64,000 bases of DNA from Candidatus Saccharimonadales bacterium (GTDB taxonomy: Bacteria; Patescibacteriota; Saccharimonadia; Saccharimonadales; UBA7683): the NCBI GenBank assembly GCA_046350615.1, contig JAXMAA010000003.1:9695-73694 (forward strand), read 5' to 3'. The notes under the pieces are model-generated. The model had not been told where the DNA came from, did not search any database, and was given only the letters and a program-made list of their open reading frames with translations. Within the stretch, counting starts at the first letter, position 1. Every line of letters begins with the position of its first letter. Both the position numbers and the translations under genes were made by a program. Below, piece by piece: positions 22,793 to 28,110 of this stretch.

Positions 22793-23056
22793 TTACTTAT
22801 CCTTACCACCGTGTTTACGGAACTTGCGGGTTGGACTAAATTCACCAAGTTTATGACCAACCATGTTTTCGCTTACAAATACTGGCACGTGGACCTTGCC
22901 GTTATGTACTGCAATTGTGCGACCAACAAATTCTGGGGCAATCGTGCTGGCACGTGCCCATGTTTTAATAACGGTGCGATCATCTTGACCAAGAGCTGCT
23001 ATTTTTTTAGCGAGCTTCGGGTCTACAAATGGTCCTTTTTTAAGTGATCTAGACAT
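22793..23056 (-). CDS. rpsS: 30S ribosomal protein S19 (start at ATG 23056)
   Basis: [12 protein letters not shown]...; GGGGAGAGG SD directly upstream; ORF-track N-terminal extension rejected. Confidence 0.95.
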
Positions 23057-23384
23057 CCTCTCCCCTTCTATTTGTAAGTTCTGAAATAATTTGTGTATCG
23101 CGAGCATCGTTGAAAAGAGCGTTCAGTATGTCATATTCTTCTTGCCCATGTAAATCGGAACCCGTAGTTAAATCAAAGTCTCTCGATAATTGTCTTCGAT
23201 AACCCATTAGACCTATGCGCTCTAAATCAGTAAGCTCTGGATCTAAAACCGTTAAATCTCCTGATAGTCGTCCTAACGAACGTGCTGTTCTGTGATTAAG
23301 CTGTGCGTTTGTAGCAAACTTAGCTTTTTGGAATTCAGCATCATGCGCTTCTTTGAATGTGGGTATGCGTAAATCAACAGCCAT
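23049..23384 (-). CDS. hypothetical 111-aa protein inserted between rplB and rpsS
   Basis: ATG 1 nt after rplB stop with GAGGAAATAAT SD; its last codons (RRGEDV*) contain the rpsS SD and start; no recognisable motif. Confidence 0.65.
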
Positions 23385-23385
23385 A

Positions 23386-24222
23386 TTATTTCCTCTTAGC
23401 CTGATGACGGCTTCTTACGATAAATGTAGTTGAACGTTTGTTGCGACGTGTTTTGTAACCAAGAGCAGGTTTGCCCCAAGGAGTTTTTGGCGCACGGCCA
23501 ACACCATGAGAACCACCATCACCACCACCGTGTGGGTGATCTGCTGCATTCATAACGAGACCACGAACTTGCGGGCGGCGTCCAAGATGGCGTTTACGTC
23601 CAGCAGAGCCGATCTTAACGTTCTGGTGCTGTTCGTTTCCAACTGCACCAATGGTTGCCATGCTGTTGATGTTAATGCGGCGAATTTCACCACTCGGGAG
23701 CTTGACCTGAGCGTATTCACCCTCTTTGGCAGTCAACTGAGCTTTTGCACCAGCCGAGCGTACCATTTGAGCGCCACGACCAGGCTGGATTTCGATACCA
23801 TGAATGAAACTACCTACTGGAATCGCCTGTAACGGTAGGCGGTTGCCATCTTCAATAGGAGCTTTTTCGCCAACAACTATAGTTTGACCAACCTTCATGC
23901 GACCAGTAGCGATAATATAATGGTACTTCTGGTTCTCATCTTTAATACGTGCGATATTTGCACTACGGTTCGGATCGTATTCGATCGCCTCAATTTCAGC
24001 CTTACCGAAATCTAGTTGCTTAAAGTTAACAAGTCGGTAGAACTGCTTTGCGCCACCGCCACGGTGGCGAACAGTAATAACACCCCTGTTGTTGCGTCCA
24101 CTCGAGCGCTTTTTTGCTACAAGCAGCGACTTCAAAGGCTTTTTGGTTGTGATCTTATCAAAATCTTGCGAGCTCATGCCACGGCGAGAAGGAGTTGTTG
24201 GTTTGTACTGAGTGACAGCCAT
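23386..24222 (-). CDS. rplB: 50S ribosomal protein L2
   Basis: GRNNRGVITVRHRGGG, MNAADHPHGGG. Confidence 0.97.
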   Translation of the reverse strand: MAVTQYKPTTPSRRGMSSQDFDKITTKKPLKSLLVAKKRSSGRNNRGVITVRHRGGGAKQFYRLVNFKQLDFGKAEIEAIEYDPNRSANIARIKDENQKYHYIIATGRMKVGQTIVVGEKAPIEDGNRLPLQAIPVGSFIHGIEIQPGRGAQMVRSAGAKAQLTAKEGEYAQVKLPSGEIRRININSMATIGAVGNEQHQNVKIGSAGRKRHLGRRPQVRGLVMNAADHPHGGGDGGSHGVGRAPKTPWGKPALGYKTRRNKRSTTFIVRSRHQAKRK

Positions 24223-25183: not shown

Positions 25184-25801
25184 TTACGCTCCTACCACCG
25201 TTATGAGGCTCTTTTTTGGGCCAGGGATAGCGCCTTTAAAGCCTATAAGATTATTTTCGAGGTCAATATAGGCAACCTTTAGACCAGAAACAGTCACCTG
25301 TTCGGCGCCCATTTGGCCAGCCATTCGCTTGCCCTTAAAGACTTTTTGCGGATACATAGATCCGATTGAACCAGGCCGACGAACCATTCCGTTACCACCG
25401 TGTGTGCTAGCGCTGGTCGCGAAGTTATTACGCTTTACGTTGCCCGCAAAACCCTTACCTTTGCTGGTGCCAGTTACTTTGACTTTGTCGCCGACTTCGA
25501 AGATTGAAACATCAAAAGAGGAGCCTAGTTTTTGCTCCTCTGAGATTGCCTCAACACGAAATTCTTTAATGATGCGTGGCATGAGATCTTTGCTTGCCTT
25601 CGCTGCATGGCCCTTTACAGACTTGCTCACGTTCTTACCGCCACCGAGTGAAAGCTGAATAGATGTATAGCCATCAGTTTCATCGGTTTTAATTTGGGTA
25701 ATAACGCAAGGACCAGCCTGTACGAGAGTTACAGGAATTAAAACACCATCCTCTTGGAGGATCTGGGTCATACCAATTTTTGTACCCAATAATGCTTTCA
25801 T
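25184..25801 (-). CDS. rplC: 50S ribosomal protein L3
   Basis: LLGTKIGMTQI, TSKGKGFAGNVKR, FKGKRMAGQMG. Confidence 0.95.
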   Translation of the reverse strand: MKALLGTKIGMTQILQEDGVLIPVTLVQAGPCVITQIKTDETDGYTSIQLSLGGGKNVSKSVKGHAAKASKDLMPRIIKEFRVEAISEEQKLGSSFDVSIFEVGDKVKVTGTSKGKGFAGNVKRNNFATSASTHGGNGMVRRPGSIGSMYPQKVFKGKRMAGQMGAEQVTVSGLKVAYIDLENNLIGFKGAIPGPKKSLITVVGA

Positions 25802-25927
25802 GTTGTCCCTTATTTACCATCAGAGCAAACAAAAATCTTGGACTGCTTCTGGTATCTGGTGATTTTTTCAAACCTCAGACCTGGAAACATGCCAAGTGCT
25901 TGATAAATGGCGTAAAATTACCATCAC

Positions 25928-25957
25928 AGCATATCAGATTACACTCAGTAGTGTCAA
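25928..25957 (-). promoter_or_regulatory. candidate promoter driving rplC and downstream genes
   Basis: Minus-strand TTGACA (25952-25957), 18-nt spacer, TATGCT (25928-25933), about 125 nt upstream of rplC ATG. Confidence 0.4.
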
Positions 25958-25972
25958 GTGTTTCTACTAAAA

Positions 25973-26269
25973 CTACCCACCAGCATTGTATGTTGTTTCG
26001 CCATCTCGTGCAGGCCTAAACCTTGCACCACTCGTAGGCACTAGAAATTCGCCGTCTCCTATCGCTTCGTCTCGCGCAATTCTAACATGTTCACGAGTGA
26101 ATGTACCATCGGGCTGAACAGCCATTACGCCATCTGTGATCTCGGTTCCTTTCCAGGGATGGCCTTCATCAGTTGCGCAAAACTCAGCCAAGGCCGCACG
26201 TGCAGCGGGCATGGCACGATGGAAATTATTCCGCATTTTTGATATTCTTTCATGATTTGTCGTGTTCAT
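25973..26269 (-). CDS. hypothetical protein (98 aa from internal ATG; ORF track 118 aa)
   Basis: Longest ORF start would overlap the IS hairpin at 26317-26337; start uncertain; no motif recognised. Confidence 0.45.
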   Translation of the reverse strand: MNTTNHERISKMRNNFHRAMPAARAALAEFCATDEGHPWKGTEITDGVMAVQPDGTFTREHVRIARDEAIGDGEFLVPTSGARFRPARDGETTYNAGG

Positions 26270-26316
26270 AGCTCTATACAATGTAACCGATGTACTCAAA
26301 CGGCGCAAATAAACTT

Positions 26317-26872
26317 CCCACGACCTCACGGTCGGGGTATTGGCTCCTTCAAACTAACCGAAGGTTAGTTTGCCCACTATCCTGTTTGCCTTGGTTTTCT
26401 ATGTAGCTTCGTATAGTGCTTTCGTTTATGCCAACTGTGCTAACAAAGTAGCCTTCCGACCAAATACTGTCTGTGCCCCAGTAGATCTTTTTTAGAAATG
26501 GTAGCTCGGCCTTCATGCCTCTTGCAGTGTTTGCCTTAATTATACCCACCACCTTACCTACGGACCACGTTGGTGGAATGGAAACGAGCATGTGTATGTG
26601 GTCTTTGTCGGTATTGGCAGTTTTGAAGATGACTTCAGGGTAGTGGTCCTGGATTTCTTTGATACGAGATGTAATGAAGGCCTTAACGCCTTCGTTGATG
26701 ATACTGCGTCGGTATTTGGTCGGAAACACTATATGGTAGTCACAGAGGAATACACAGTGGGATTTATGACGATAGAGCGTTGGCATTACCTACTCATGAT
26801 AGTCGGTGCAGGCCGAAAGCGGCAAACAAGCTAGTGGGTTAGGGCATACTGCCCACGACCTTACGGTCGGGG
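26317..26872 (-). mobile_element. IS200/IS605-family element (tnpA only), bounded approximately by two subterminal hairpins
   Basis: CCCACGACC-TCAC-GGTCGGGG (26317-26337) and CCCACGACC-TTAC-GGTCGGGG (26852-26872), same orientation, each followed by GTAYTG, flanking tnpA. Confidence 0.7.
26349..26786 (-). CDS. tnpA: IS200/IS605-family Y1 (HUH) transposase TnpA
   Basis: 145 aa; YHIVFPTKYRR, HIHMLVSIPP (HUH), SEGYFVSTVG (catalytic Tyr region). Confidence 0.85.
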   Translation of the reverse strand: MPTLYRHKSHCVFLCDYHIVFPTKYRRSIINEGVKAFITSRIKEIQDHYPEVIFKTANTDKDHIHMLVSIPPTWSVGKVVGIIKANTARGMKAELPFLKKIYWGTDSIWSEGYFVSTVGINESTIRSYIENQGKQDSGQTNLRLV

Positions 26873-26915
26873 TACTGTGCGCCTGGAATAGAAGACGACA
26901 CACCACGAGCCTGTA

Positions 26916-27200
26916 TTAGACGATAATACCGACTGGGAGATAGAAACTGATGATGGTTGCTACTAAGAGGACTGCTAATTCGATTTTTTTATCAGTTTGA
27001 AAATGCTCATGTGATGCGAACACAAGGCCCAATACCAGTCCCAGGGGCAGACTGAGATGTTCGAACGGGCCAATGTTCACATTCAAAAGCCTGACCCAAA
27101 AGGTGCCAAATATAAAGAATAGGACAAGTTTCAACAAGTATGTGGTGTCAGTCTCGGTATTTTTACGAGCTTTTTTGCTCTTCACTTTTTGTTTTGCCAT
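26916..27200 (-). CDS. small hypothetical membrane protein (basic N-terminus, 3 hydrophobic segments)
   Basis: 94 aa; AAGG SD 6 nt upstream. Confidence 0.5.
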   Translation of the reverse strand: MAKQKVKSKKARKNTETDTTYLLKLVLFFIFGTFWVRLLNVNIGPFEHLSLPLGLVLGLVFASHEHFQTDKKIELAVLLVATIISFYLPVGIIV

Positions 27201-27275
27201 ATCTAACCTTCATTAAAGCATAAACAAAATCAAATAGAAAGCCCGTACTCTGCTGCGGGTCCGTCCTCCAGCAAA

Positions 27276-27533
27276 TTATTTTTTGCCGGTGGCGAGGTTT
27301 TTTACGAAGAGCAATATGAGTGCGCCAGCGACAGCCACAAAGAAGCTGCGGAGGTTGAAGCCGGTAACGCCGACACCATTCAAGAGAAAGCCCGAAATCC
27401 AGCCACCGATAGCCGCGCCGATGATGCCCACGATGATGTTGCCAATCGCTCCTTGCTCTTTGTTATTTCCTGCAATCAGAGATGCAAGCCAGCCTGCGAT
27501 TGCTCCAAAGATTATCCACGATAGTATACCCAC
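27276..27533 (-). CDS. GlsB/YeaQ/YmgE-family (transglycosylase-associated) small membrane protein, GTG start
   Basis: GILSWIIFGAIAGWLA...GNIIVGIIGAAIGGWI glycine-zipper pattern; strong AAGGAGG SD. Confidence 0.75.
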   Translation of the reverse strand: MGILSWIIFGAIAGWLASLIAGNNKEQGAIGNIIVGIIGAAIGGWISGFLLNGVGVTGFNLRSFFVAVAGALILLFVKNLATGKK

Positions 27534-27590
27534 CTGATCCTCCTTATGATTACTTTTCTATTATATCAGCTCGTGTCAACGGGTATGTTT

Positions 27591-27620
27591 TAAAATGAAA
27601 GACCCACTTTCAGGTGGGTC
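27591..27620 (-). terminator. intrinsic terminator 25 nt downstream of rpsJ
   Basis: Minus-strand GACCCAC-CTGAAA-GTGGGTC followed by TTTCATTTTA. Confidence 0.6.
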
Positions 27621-27644
27621 AGTCTAAGCTCTGAGAACTAAGAT

Positions 27645-27968
27645 CTAGTTCATACGAATTTCGGCGTCGCAACCAGCTGGCAGGCTGAGGTTCATCAGGC
27701 TGTCGATAGTTTTTGGAGTTGGCTCTAAAATATCAATCAAGCGCTTGTGAACACGCATTTCAAACTGTTCCATACCTTTTTTGTACACGTGCGGGCTTTT
27801 TACTACTGTAAATTTGCTCTTACGAGTTGGCAAAGGAATTGGCCCGTTGACAGTAGCACCAGTTCTCAGTGCGGTATCAATAATCTGCTTCGCAGATTGG
27901 TCGATAATTTTATGGTCGTATGCCTTTAGGCGAATACGAATTTTTTGCTTTGGTGTAGCGTCAGCCAT
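27645..27968 (-). CDS. rpsJ: 30S ribosomal protein S10 (start at ATG 27968)
   Basis: [21 protein letters not shown]..., [20 protein letters not shown]. Confidence 0.95.
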
Positions 27969-28110
27969 TATGACTTCCCTTCTTGTGCTGTGATGTAACA
28001 TCTTTACAGGTCTATTGAGAGTACCCATAACGACTTTTCGTCACCACGTTTATATTGTGTGAGTAACTATACTGTACTTTGCTTCAAAAGGAAAGCATTA
28101 GCAGCATCTT

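Follow-up and report, generated by a model that had tools for sequence, protein, structure and literature searches.

Non-ribosomal genes are well known from ribosomal-protein operons. The genes rplB and rpsS belong to a gene array that ranks among the most conserved in biology and is widely used as a phylogenetic marker set for uncultivated bacteria. The window analysed here, a stretch of 64,000 nucleotides from a Saccharimonadales bacterium (Saccharibacteria/TM7, Candidate Phyla Radiation, CPR), contains an open reading frame (ORF) of 111 codons exactly at the junction between these two genes. This raises the question of whether the ORF is a gene at all, where else such an ORF occurs and what its product might do. 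Based on sequence comparison we conclude that it is probably a real, translated accessory gene that belongs to a class defined by its position and that is under selection for charge. The ORF has been annotated before as a hypothetical protein (U0520_04220 of a Saccharimonadales MAG, NCBI entry MFO0971519.1); its unusual trait is a conserved position, length, coupling and charge together with a sequence that is not conserved. The coordinates of all features of the window are listed in Table 1.

Table 1. Features of the window around the rplB-rpsS junction and in the rpsJ-rplC region
Feature	Coordinates	Strand	Remarks
rpsS (ribosomal protein S19, 87 aa)	22793..23056	minus	downstream cistron; ATG 23056-23054
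ORF/rpsS overlap, 8 nt, ATGTCTAG	23049..23056	minus	rpsS start codon and TAG of the ORF; putative termination-reinitiation junction
Inserted ORF, 336 nt, 111 aa	23049..23384	minus	between rplB and rpsS in the S10 operon
rpsS Shine-Dalgarno (SD) region, AGAAGGGGAGAGG	23057..23069	minus	supplied by the final codons of the ORF (R-R-G-E)
SD of the inserted ORF, AAGAGGA	23391..23397	minus	within the final rplB codons
rplB (ribosomal protein L2, 278 aa)	23386..24222	minus	upstream cistron, from the ORF listing
rplC	25184-25801	minus	left flank of the rpsJ-rplC region
118-aa orphan	25973-26329	minus	rpsJ-rplC region
IS200-type Y1 transposase	26349-26786	minus	rpsJ-rplC region; Pfam E=7e-32
94-aa membrane ORF	26916-27200	minus	rpsJ-rplC region
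Transgly_assoc small membrane protein	27276-27533	minus	rpsJ-rplC region
rpsJ	27645-28028	minus	right flank of the rpsJ-rplC region

The inserted ORF is tightly packed between rplB and rpsS

The stop codon of rplB (TAA, 23388-23386) is separated by a single nucleotide (23385) from the ATG of the inserted ORF at 23384-23382, and the GAGG of the AAGAGGA motif is located 7 nt 5´ of this ATG. At its 3´ end the ORF reads AGA AGG GGA GAG GAT GTC TAG, with the TAG at 23051-23049. The first-pass annotation had described this geometry, with the spacing of 1 nt, the SD inside rplB, the 8-nt overlap with rpsS and the final codons that carry the rpsS SD, and every one of these details is correct in the sequence; only the strand had been omitted, since the genes are located on the minus strand. 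A start of rpsS at the upstream in-frame ATG 23107, which would give the mechanically called ORF of 104 aa with a 59-nt overlap with the inserted ORF, is contradicted by the alignment. Since S19 of every relative aligns from MSRSLKKG, the rpsS start is at 23056.

The packing had been taken to imply co-transcription and coupled translation with the ribosomal-protein genes. This agrees with our data, as no excess of promoters or terminators that would uncouple the ORF from the operon was found on the gene strand, and a like start/stop geometry is present in 33 relatives. Judged from the geometry of the sequence, termination-reinitiation coupling probably operates at both ends of the ORF. The identical protein is encoded in ENA ERZ724538 and in Logan SRR26348422, two independent assemblies of the same strain with 99.8-100% DNA identity, and the inserted ORF is thus not an assembly artefact. 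The encoded protein has a pI of 4.96, a net charge of -6 and a lysine content of 2.7%, and it contains no transmembrane segment (maximum 19-residue hydropathy 0.32).

About a quarter of the related loci carry an ORF at the same junction

To compare the junction between genomes, L2 was used as a handle: the 160 best L2 matches (at least 63% identity) are Saccharimonadia loci, in which L2 is 63-96% identical to that of the window, and the prevalence values given here apply to that neighbourhood. The closest relative (L001) has an L2 that is 96% identical, an S19 that is 100% identical and about 86% DNA identity overall, and it does not contain the ORF. Here, rplB and rpsS are only 2 nt apart and the AAGAGGA site at the end of rplB serves rpsS, as it does in insert-free relatives. 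Compared with this locus the window shows a clean insertion of exactly the ORF, and in the presence/absence pairs the indel is likewise exactly the ORF.

Inserts of more than 60 nt were present at the junction in 41 of the 154 assessable loci and inserts of more than 150 nt in 36 of 152, and about a quarter of the loci (24-27%) carry an ORF in this slot, which we refer to as slot ORF. The first-pass annotation had assumed that the L2 and S19 genes are almost always adjacent; for this lineage the assumption does not hold. Inserts of more than 150 nt occur in 1% or less of the loci at eight further tight junctions within the operon, and only rpsJ-rplC is comparable, a junction at which the two genes are never adjacent in this lineage.

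Each of the junction inserts consists of one ORF on the same strand, 71-132 aa in length (median 103), that fills the gap. The end of rplB, '...AAGAGGAnA-TAA', is conserved in all loci. Among the 33 distinct slot ORFs the ATG is located 1-4 nt past the rplB stop, the overlap with rpsS is ATGA in 22 and 8 nt long in nine, and a GGAG or GAGG is found 6-10 nt upstream of rpsS in all of them. The window ORF shares all features of this class: it fills the gap exactly, has coupled junctions, a matching length, an acidic and lysine-poor product and no transmembrane segment. With conservation in relatives as the yardstick, which the first-pass annotation had set, the sequence of the ORF fails; its position, length, junction architecture and acidic charge are conserved. 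Since a slot ORF is missing from the closest relative, from 73-76% of the related genomes and from the cultivated Southlakia epibionticum, in which L2 and S19 are adjacent, any function of the slot gene has to be dispensable.

Slot ORFs match no known family and resemble each other weakly

Searches of Pfam, NCBIfam, PHROGs, PADLOC and the PDB sequences returned zero matches to the window ORF, and in Pfam and NCBIfam no family was found at E values up to 10. In a word-indexed search of 5.8 billion protein clusters the ORF matched itself alone. The exhaustive HMMER (phmmer) scan of 1.84 billion representatives found only P0002 beyond the ORF itself; this is a Ser/Thr-rich, mucin-like tandem-repeat protein, the score of which is the sum of weak repeat matches, and it was rejected as spurious. 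A JGI metagenome scan with the window ORF revealed no relative. The early observation that the protein matches nothing recognisable is thereby borne out by searches of families, structure sequences, protein clusters and metagenomes, and together with the positional class in Saccharimonadia this agrees with the suggestion of a lineage-specific gene. A full-text search of the published literature yielded no account of a recurrent gene in the rplB-rpsS slot. Similarity of the ORF to the rest of the window or to the loci was detected neither at the DNA level nor after translation, and an origin by duplication or overprinting is therefore unsupported. With AlphaFold2, a mostly helical model of low confidence was obtained for the window ORF alone (pLDDT 45), and the confidence was also low for a member of the core family described below, which was modelled with a 5-sequence alignment (pLDDT 51).

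The slot ORFs differ strongly from each other as well. In a global alignment the mean column identity was 12%, each slot ORF is a singleton in the large database, and the common C-terminal 'EG..' tail is the rpsS SD translated as codons. Weak similarity was 9-28 times enriched in real slot-ORF pairs over shuffled and six-frame decoys. A core family could be defined (L006, L031, L037, L038, L065, L079 and L162), each member of which beats all 3401 decoys with a leave-one-out profile. Searches of a large protein database with the core alignment and with L065 retrieved only the queries themselves, and a five-member profile picked by eye recruited nothing above decoys.

The window ORF resembles the core family only marginally. 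With the leave-one-out core profile it scored 2.9 bits and took rank 50 among 3401 decoys (p about 0.015). In pairwise comparisons L065 matched it best (shuffling p=0.0014, corrected about 0.04), and the aligned blocks coincide with the core-family motifs. Alignments to the window ORF are better for the slot ORFs as a group than for decoys (Mann-Whitney p=1.3e-5); the probability that hhalign assigned to a match with the core family was 0.2%. From these comparisons, the chance that the window ORF is homologous to the core family seems to be roughly even.

The slot-ORF products are acidic without exception

All 33 distinct slot ORFs, including the window ORF, encode products with a pI between 4.05 and 5.50, a set that is not phylogenetically independent. 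The lysine content of the products is 2.8% and transmembrane segments are absent. When random open frames were generated with the base composition of each ORF, 4% were acidic and the median pI was 9.8; the acidic share is 47% for the real long genes of this genome and 8% for six-frame decoys. The third-position identity within the window's own clade is 0.45-0.55, showing that synonymous sites are saturated between the sampled species, and an unselected charge would therefore have drifted. The universal acidity is the strongest argument from sequence that the product is made and probably matters, at least in the sense of being 'not harmful'. Since a protein constrained in its bulk properties becomes unrecognisable at saturated distances, the 'hypervariability' of the slot ORFs needs no special mechanism.

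The coding signal was analysed with codon models. As a class, the slot ORFs, with a frame-0 score of -0.10, lie between random ORFs (-0.39) and real genes (+0.24), and in 88% of them no other frame scores better than frame 0. With a genome-specific codon model the window ORF scores -0.03, which is reached by 0.5% of random ORFs, lies within the range of real genes and neighbours the score of the IS200 transposase gene. A pooled cross-genome model gives it a score typical of random ORFs, and a higher one in frame +1. The codon-model tests are consistent with a translated product but weaker than the charge argument.

In 31 of the 33 cases the slot ORF is AT-richer than its own locus, and its GC3 is 0.35, compared to 0.58 for rplB, with a poorer codon adaptation than that of the ribosomal neighbours. 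Slot ORFs are therefore not codon-optimised like their neighbours, which is unexpected if the proteins are under selection for expression at the ribosomal level. Pairs of carriers are either from the same strain or identical, or they are saturated at synonymous sites. The near-identical strains L015 and L091 differ by 9 SNPs over 5852 aligned nt, two of which are located in the 294-nt slot ORF (0.45 expected) and none in the 852-nt rplB. Both slot-ORF SNPs are non-synonymous; this pattern is not significant but suggests relaxed constraint on the slot ORF.

The distribution on the L2 tree is patchy

The distribution of slot ORFs was analysed on a neighbour-joining tree made from one protein, L2. 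With 31 carriers among 139 tips, 24 Fitch changes are required, compared to 28.1±1.6 with permuted tips (p=0.01), and a single origin of the slot ORF would need 49 losses on this tree. Core-family members are found in distant clades, with L006 belonging to the window's own genus-level clade. Because the core members span distant clades, the gene would be either old and frequently lost in a clean manner, or transferred by recombination through the conserved flanks.

The rpsS gene of the window (start region 23045-23056) and that of L006 both start with ATG TCT AGA TCA CTT, and they share the identical 15-mer ATGTCTAGATCACTT. In 12 of 15 insert-free clade-mates rpsS starts with ATG AGT AGA AGT CTn. 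The codons TCT-AGA at positions 2-3 of rpsS occur at nine of 34 insert-bearing junctions and at four of 112 adjacent ones; AGT-AGA at the start of rpsS would make the TAG stop equally. These codons are the only hint of linkage between the insert and its flanks. A wider recombination tract was not detected in the comparison with L006, as both flanking genes of the window, rpsS and rplB, are equally distant from L006 and from the rest of the clade. The search for terminal repeats or a target-site duplication at the ORF yielded only repeats of 11-17 nt, which is the chance level.

Possible nature of the slot genes

In the explanation that we consider probable, ribosomes that complete rplB would meet the ATG of the ORF 1 nt past the stop, behind an SD from which rpsS is served where the insert is missing. 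Judging from the geometry, rplB, the ORF and rpsS would all be read by termination-reinitiation, and because of this the amounts of the product would be tied to those of L2 and S19. The window ORF would be one position-locked slot gene of a class that is present in about a quarter of the Saccharimonadia. Because the constraint on residues is too weak to leave recognisable orthologs, selection would act on bulk properties, namely negative charge, solubility and length. Charge and position might indicate a role as an abundant, dispensable polyanionic partner that shields new basic ribosomal proteins (L2, S19 and their neighbours) or modulates assembly; we propose this role tentatively and would sooner expect another one. 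The wider idea that many Saccharibacteria possess a position-locked, fast-evolving polyanionic protein that acts by its bulk charge on new ribosomal proteins or assembling ribosomes is speculative and rather improbable. If true, it would represent a bacterial counterpart of dedicated ribosomal-protein chaperones and a protein family in which position, length and charge are kept and the sequence is not.

The main alternative, which we consider rather unlikely, would be that the ORF is a tolerated filler with a functionless product, which is kept open for the expression of rpsS and the downstream genes. An insert would then survive only if it is open and has both coupling junctions, and only a base-precise deletion would be safe. 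A basic or sticky abundant protein would bind rRNA and ribosomes, hence selection for harmlessness would result in an acidic, lysine-poor and soluble product. The extremely weak sequence constraint, with all members being singletons in large databases, fits well with a filler, and so do the weak coding signal, the low GC3 and the codon adaptation that is poor compared to the neighbours. The gene is dispensable and very labile, with at least 24 changes on the tree, both insert SNPs between L015 and L091 are non-synonymous, and the C-terminal likeness among members is only the rpsS SD in the form of codons. However, a costly cistron of 300 nt should be eliminated from streamlined genomes of about 1 Mb, and since clean losses are evidently frequent, persistence in a quarter of the lineages over saturated divergence needs either a benefit or re-gain. 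In addition, the core-family motifs are kept across saturated distances, which points to some residue-level constraint, and the narrow length range around the median of 103 aa is unlike that of a neutral spacer. That the ORF is not a gene, but either arose by chance in an intergenic spacer that has expanded or belongs to a non-coding RNA element, has next to no probability. Its orphan status, the weak signal in the pooled codon model and the low-confidence structure models would agree with this, but the probability that 111 codons stay open by chance is roughly 1e-3 at about 41% GC (estimated from base composition), and 33 distinct sequences show the arrangement, in every case on the gene strand. 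Acidity of 33 out of 33 products would be impossible without selection at the level of translation, no Rfam match at E values up to 1 was found for the ORF region, and RNA folding of this region is no more stable than that of shuffled sequences (z-score +0.85).

The patchiness and the unrelated sequences in close relatives would be accounted for by a mobile or selfish cassette, which might spread passively, by transformation and recombination via the rplB and rpsS flanks, or actively in a homing-like manner. Sister genomes differ in the presence of the insert with exact boundaries, the phylogenetic signal is weak and the GC content of the insert is below that of its surroundings. The first rpsS codons match those of the carrier L006 and are unlike those of insert-free clade-mates, TCT-AGA is enriched at insert-bearing junctions, and similar ORFs at other operon junctions are found in carrier genomes only. 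Saccharibacteria are moreover naturally transformable (PMC10633639). Nevertheless, we consider a cassette very unlikely: Pfam, NCBIfam, PHROGs and PADLOC revealed no nuclease, recombinase or transposase domain in the window ORF, and with respect to anti-phage defence or toxin-antitoxin systems PADLOC was empty and both neighbours are ribosomal-protein genes, leaving no partner gene. A protein of about 100 aa without a conserved motif is unlikely to be an enzyme, terminal repeats are not above chance, a recombination tract to L006 is missing and no donor sequence is present in the databases searched; a costly insert without a drive mechanism would not spread. The proposal of a selfish gene that exploits a highly expressed operon, made in the first-pass annotation, thus has little support, although the patchiness is compatible with transfer. 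Even less probable is a new structural ribosomal protein or a dedicated ribosome-binding factor of some Saccharibacteria. The location in the S10 operon and a synthesis coupled to L2 and S19 would suit such a protein, and size and acidity may be reminiscent of bL12 or RsfS-like factors. Yet the slot ORFs had no significant profile match to families of ribosomal proteins or ribosome-binding factors, including RMF, HPF and RsfS; when all 32 slot ORFs were scanned against Pfam and NCBIfam nothing was significant, the best hit being RMF with E=0.05 in one member. The gene is also missing from most relatives, although their ribosomal proteins are otherwise near-identical. The lack of a family match and the dispensability of the gene bear equally on the candidate ribosome-associated protein of the first-pass annotation. 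Hypervariability is incompatible with a fixed binding site on rRNA or protein.

Comparison with known systems and implications

Genes for non-ribosomal proteins are found in other ribosomal-protein operons, namely secY, adk, map and infA in the spc operon and rpoA in the alpha operon. Like these, the slot gene is tightly packed and co-transcribed among ribosomal-protein genes, and its expression would be tied to ribosome synthesis. In contrast to these universal and essential genes of known function, it is a dispensable, hypervariable orphan, confined to some members of one CPR class and embedded in an S10 block that otherwise consists of ribosomal genes only. Similar to orphan small-protein genes, slot ORFs are restricted to a narrow lineage, short, AT-richer and less codon-adapted, and have a weak coding signal. 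Orphan genes are normally scattered and located in variable regions, whereas the slot ORFs are tied as a class to a single junction within the most conserved operon and keep their coupling architecture and charge.

Free-standing homing endonuclease genes (seg, mob) are known from T4-like phages. By analogy, the slot ORFs might be compared to these, since they are patchily distributed and located exactly between conserved genes with clean boundaries; unlike seg and mob genes they have no GIY-YIG, HNH or LAGLIDADG domain and no conversion tract, they encode about 100 aa, are mutually unrelated in sequence and reside in a cellular chromosome. Eukaryotes possess dedicated chaperones for ribosomal proteins, such as Yar1, Acl4 and Tsr2, which are conserved and specific. 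The slot product is acidic as well and would meet very basic ribosomal proteins at their synthesis, but it is hypervariable, and the likeness would be one of function by analogy alone.

With a recurrent coupled gene at this junction, which about a quarter of a CPR class possesses, even the S10 operon turns out to contain a variable slot that is specific to a lineage. The slot genes also provide a clean natural system for studying how selection acts on the bulk properties of proteins. An interaction of the product with nascent ribosomal proteins, if it exists, could indicate an unrecognised layer of ribosome biogenesis in reduced genomes. Homology-based annotation will never flag slot genes as related, and pipelines that presume contiguous blocks of ribosomal-protein genes should expect an insertion between rplB and rpsS.

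Inserts at other junctions and unusual loci

In the window, rpsJ and rplC are split by four genes (25802-27644, minus strand), one of which encodes the transposase. This IS200/IS605-type insertion shows that the S10 region of this genome tolerates foreign insertions; the rplB-rpsS ORF differs from it in having neither a mobility gene nor repeats. A gap of more than 150 nt between the S10 and L3 genes is found in all 54 assessable Saccharimonadia loci, with a median of 774 nt. Since this gap amounts to about 1361 nt in the window and to about 517 nt in L001, the transposase region is a recent addition.

Gap-filling ORFs were also observed between the S19 and L22 genes (L077 5410-5736 and L073 5363-5829), between those of L22 and S3 (L080 5775-6071) and between those of L23 and L2 (L029 3681-4001). 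They are rare, located on the same strand and 81-145 aa in length, and all four genomes also carry a slot ORF between rplB and rpsS. An acidic product is encoded by three of these four ORFs, and the core-family profile detects none of them; a motif match seen by eye between the second insert of L077 and the core family was not confirmed by the profile.

Some rplB-rpsS junctions deviate from the usual arrangement. In L032 (1259-1848) and L118 (1128-1717) the gap is 589 nt long, with a first ATG 2 nt past the rplB stop and, after it, a second ORF of 131 aa; these gaps contain two small ORFs in succession or else a single gene with a frameshift. In L059 (4834-4958), L155 (1401-1510) and L160 (854-965) the gap is about 110 nt long and holds only ORFs of 34-42 aa, which may have been left behind by the partial deletion of slot genes. 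The peptide of L059 starts with MAET..HPEF and resembles the slot ORF of L006 (MAETHFTITEHPP). Most of the apparent gaps of 240-310 nt between the L23 and L2 genes (for example L137 1117-1393) are not inserts but C-terminal extensions of L23, which are long, rich in Lys, Glu and Ala, and variable between lineages.
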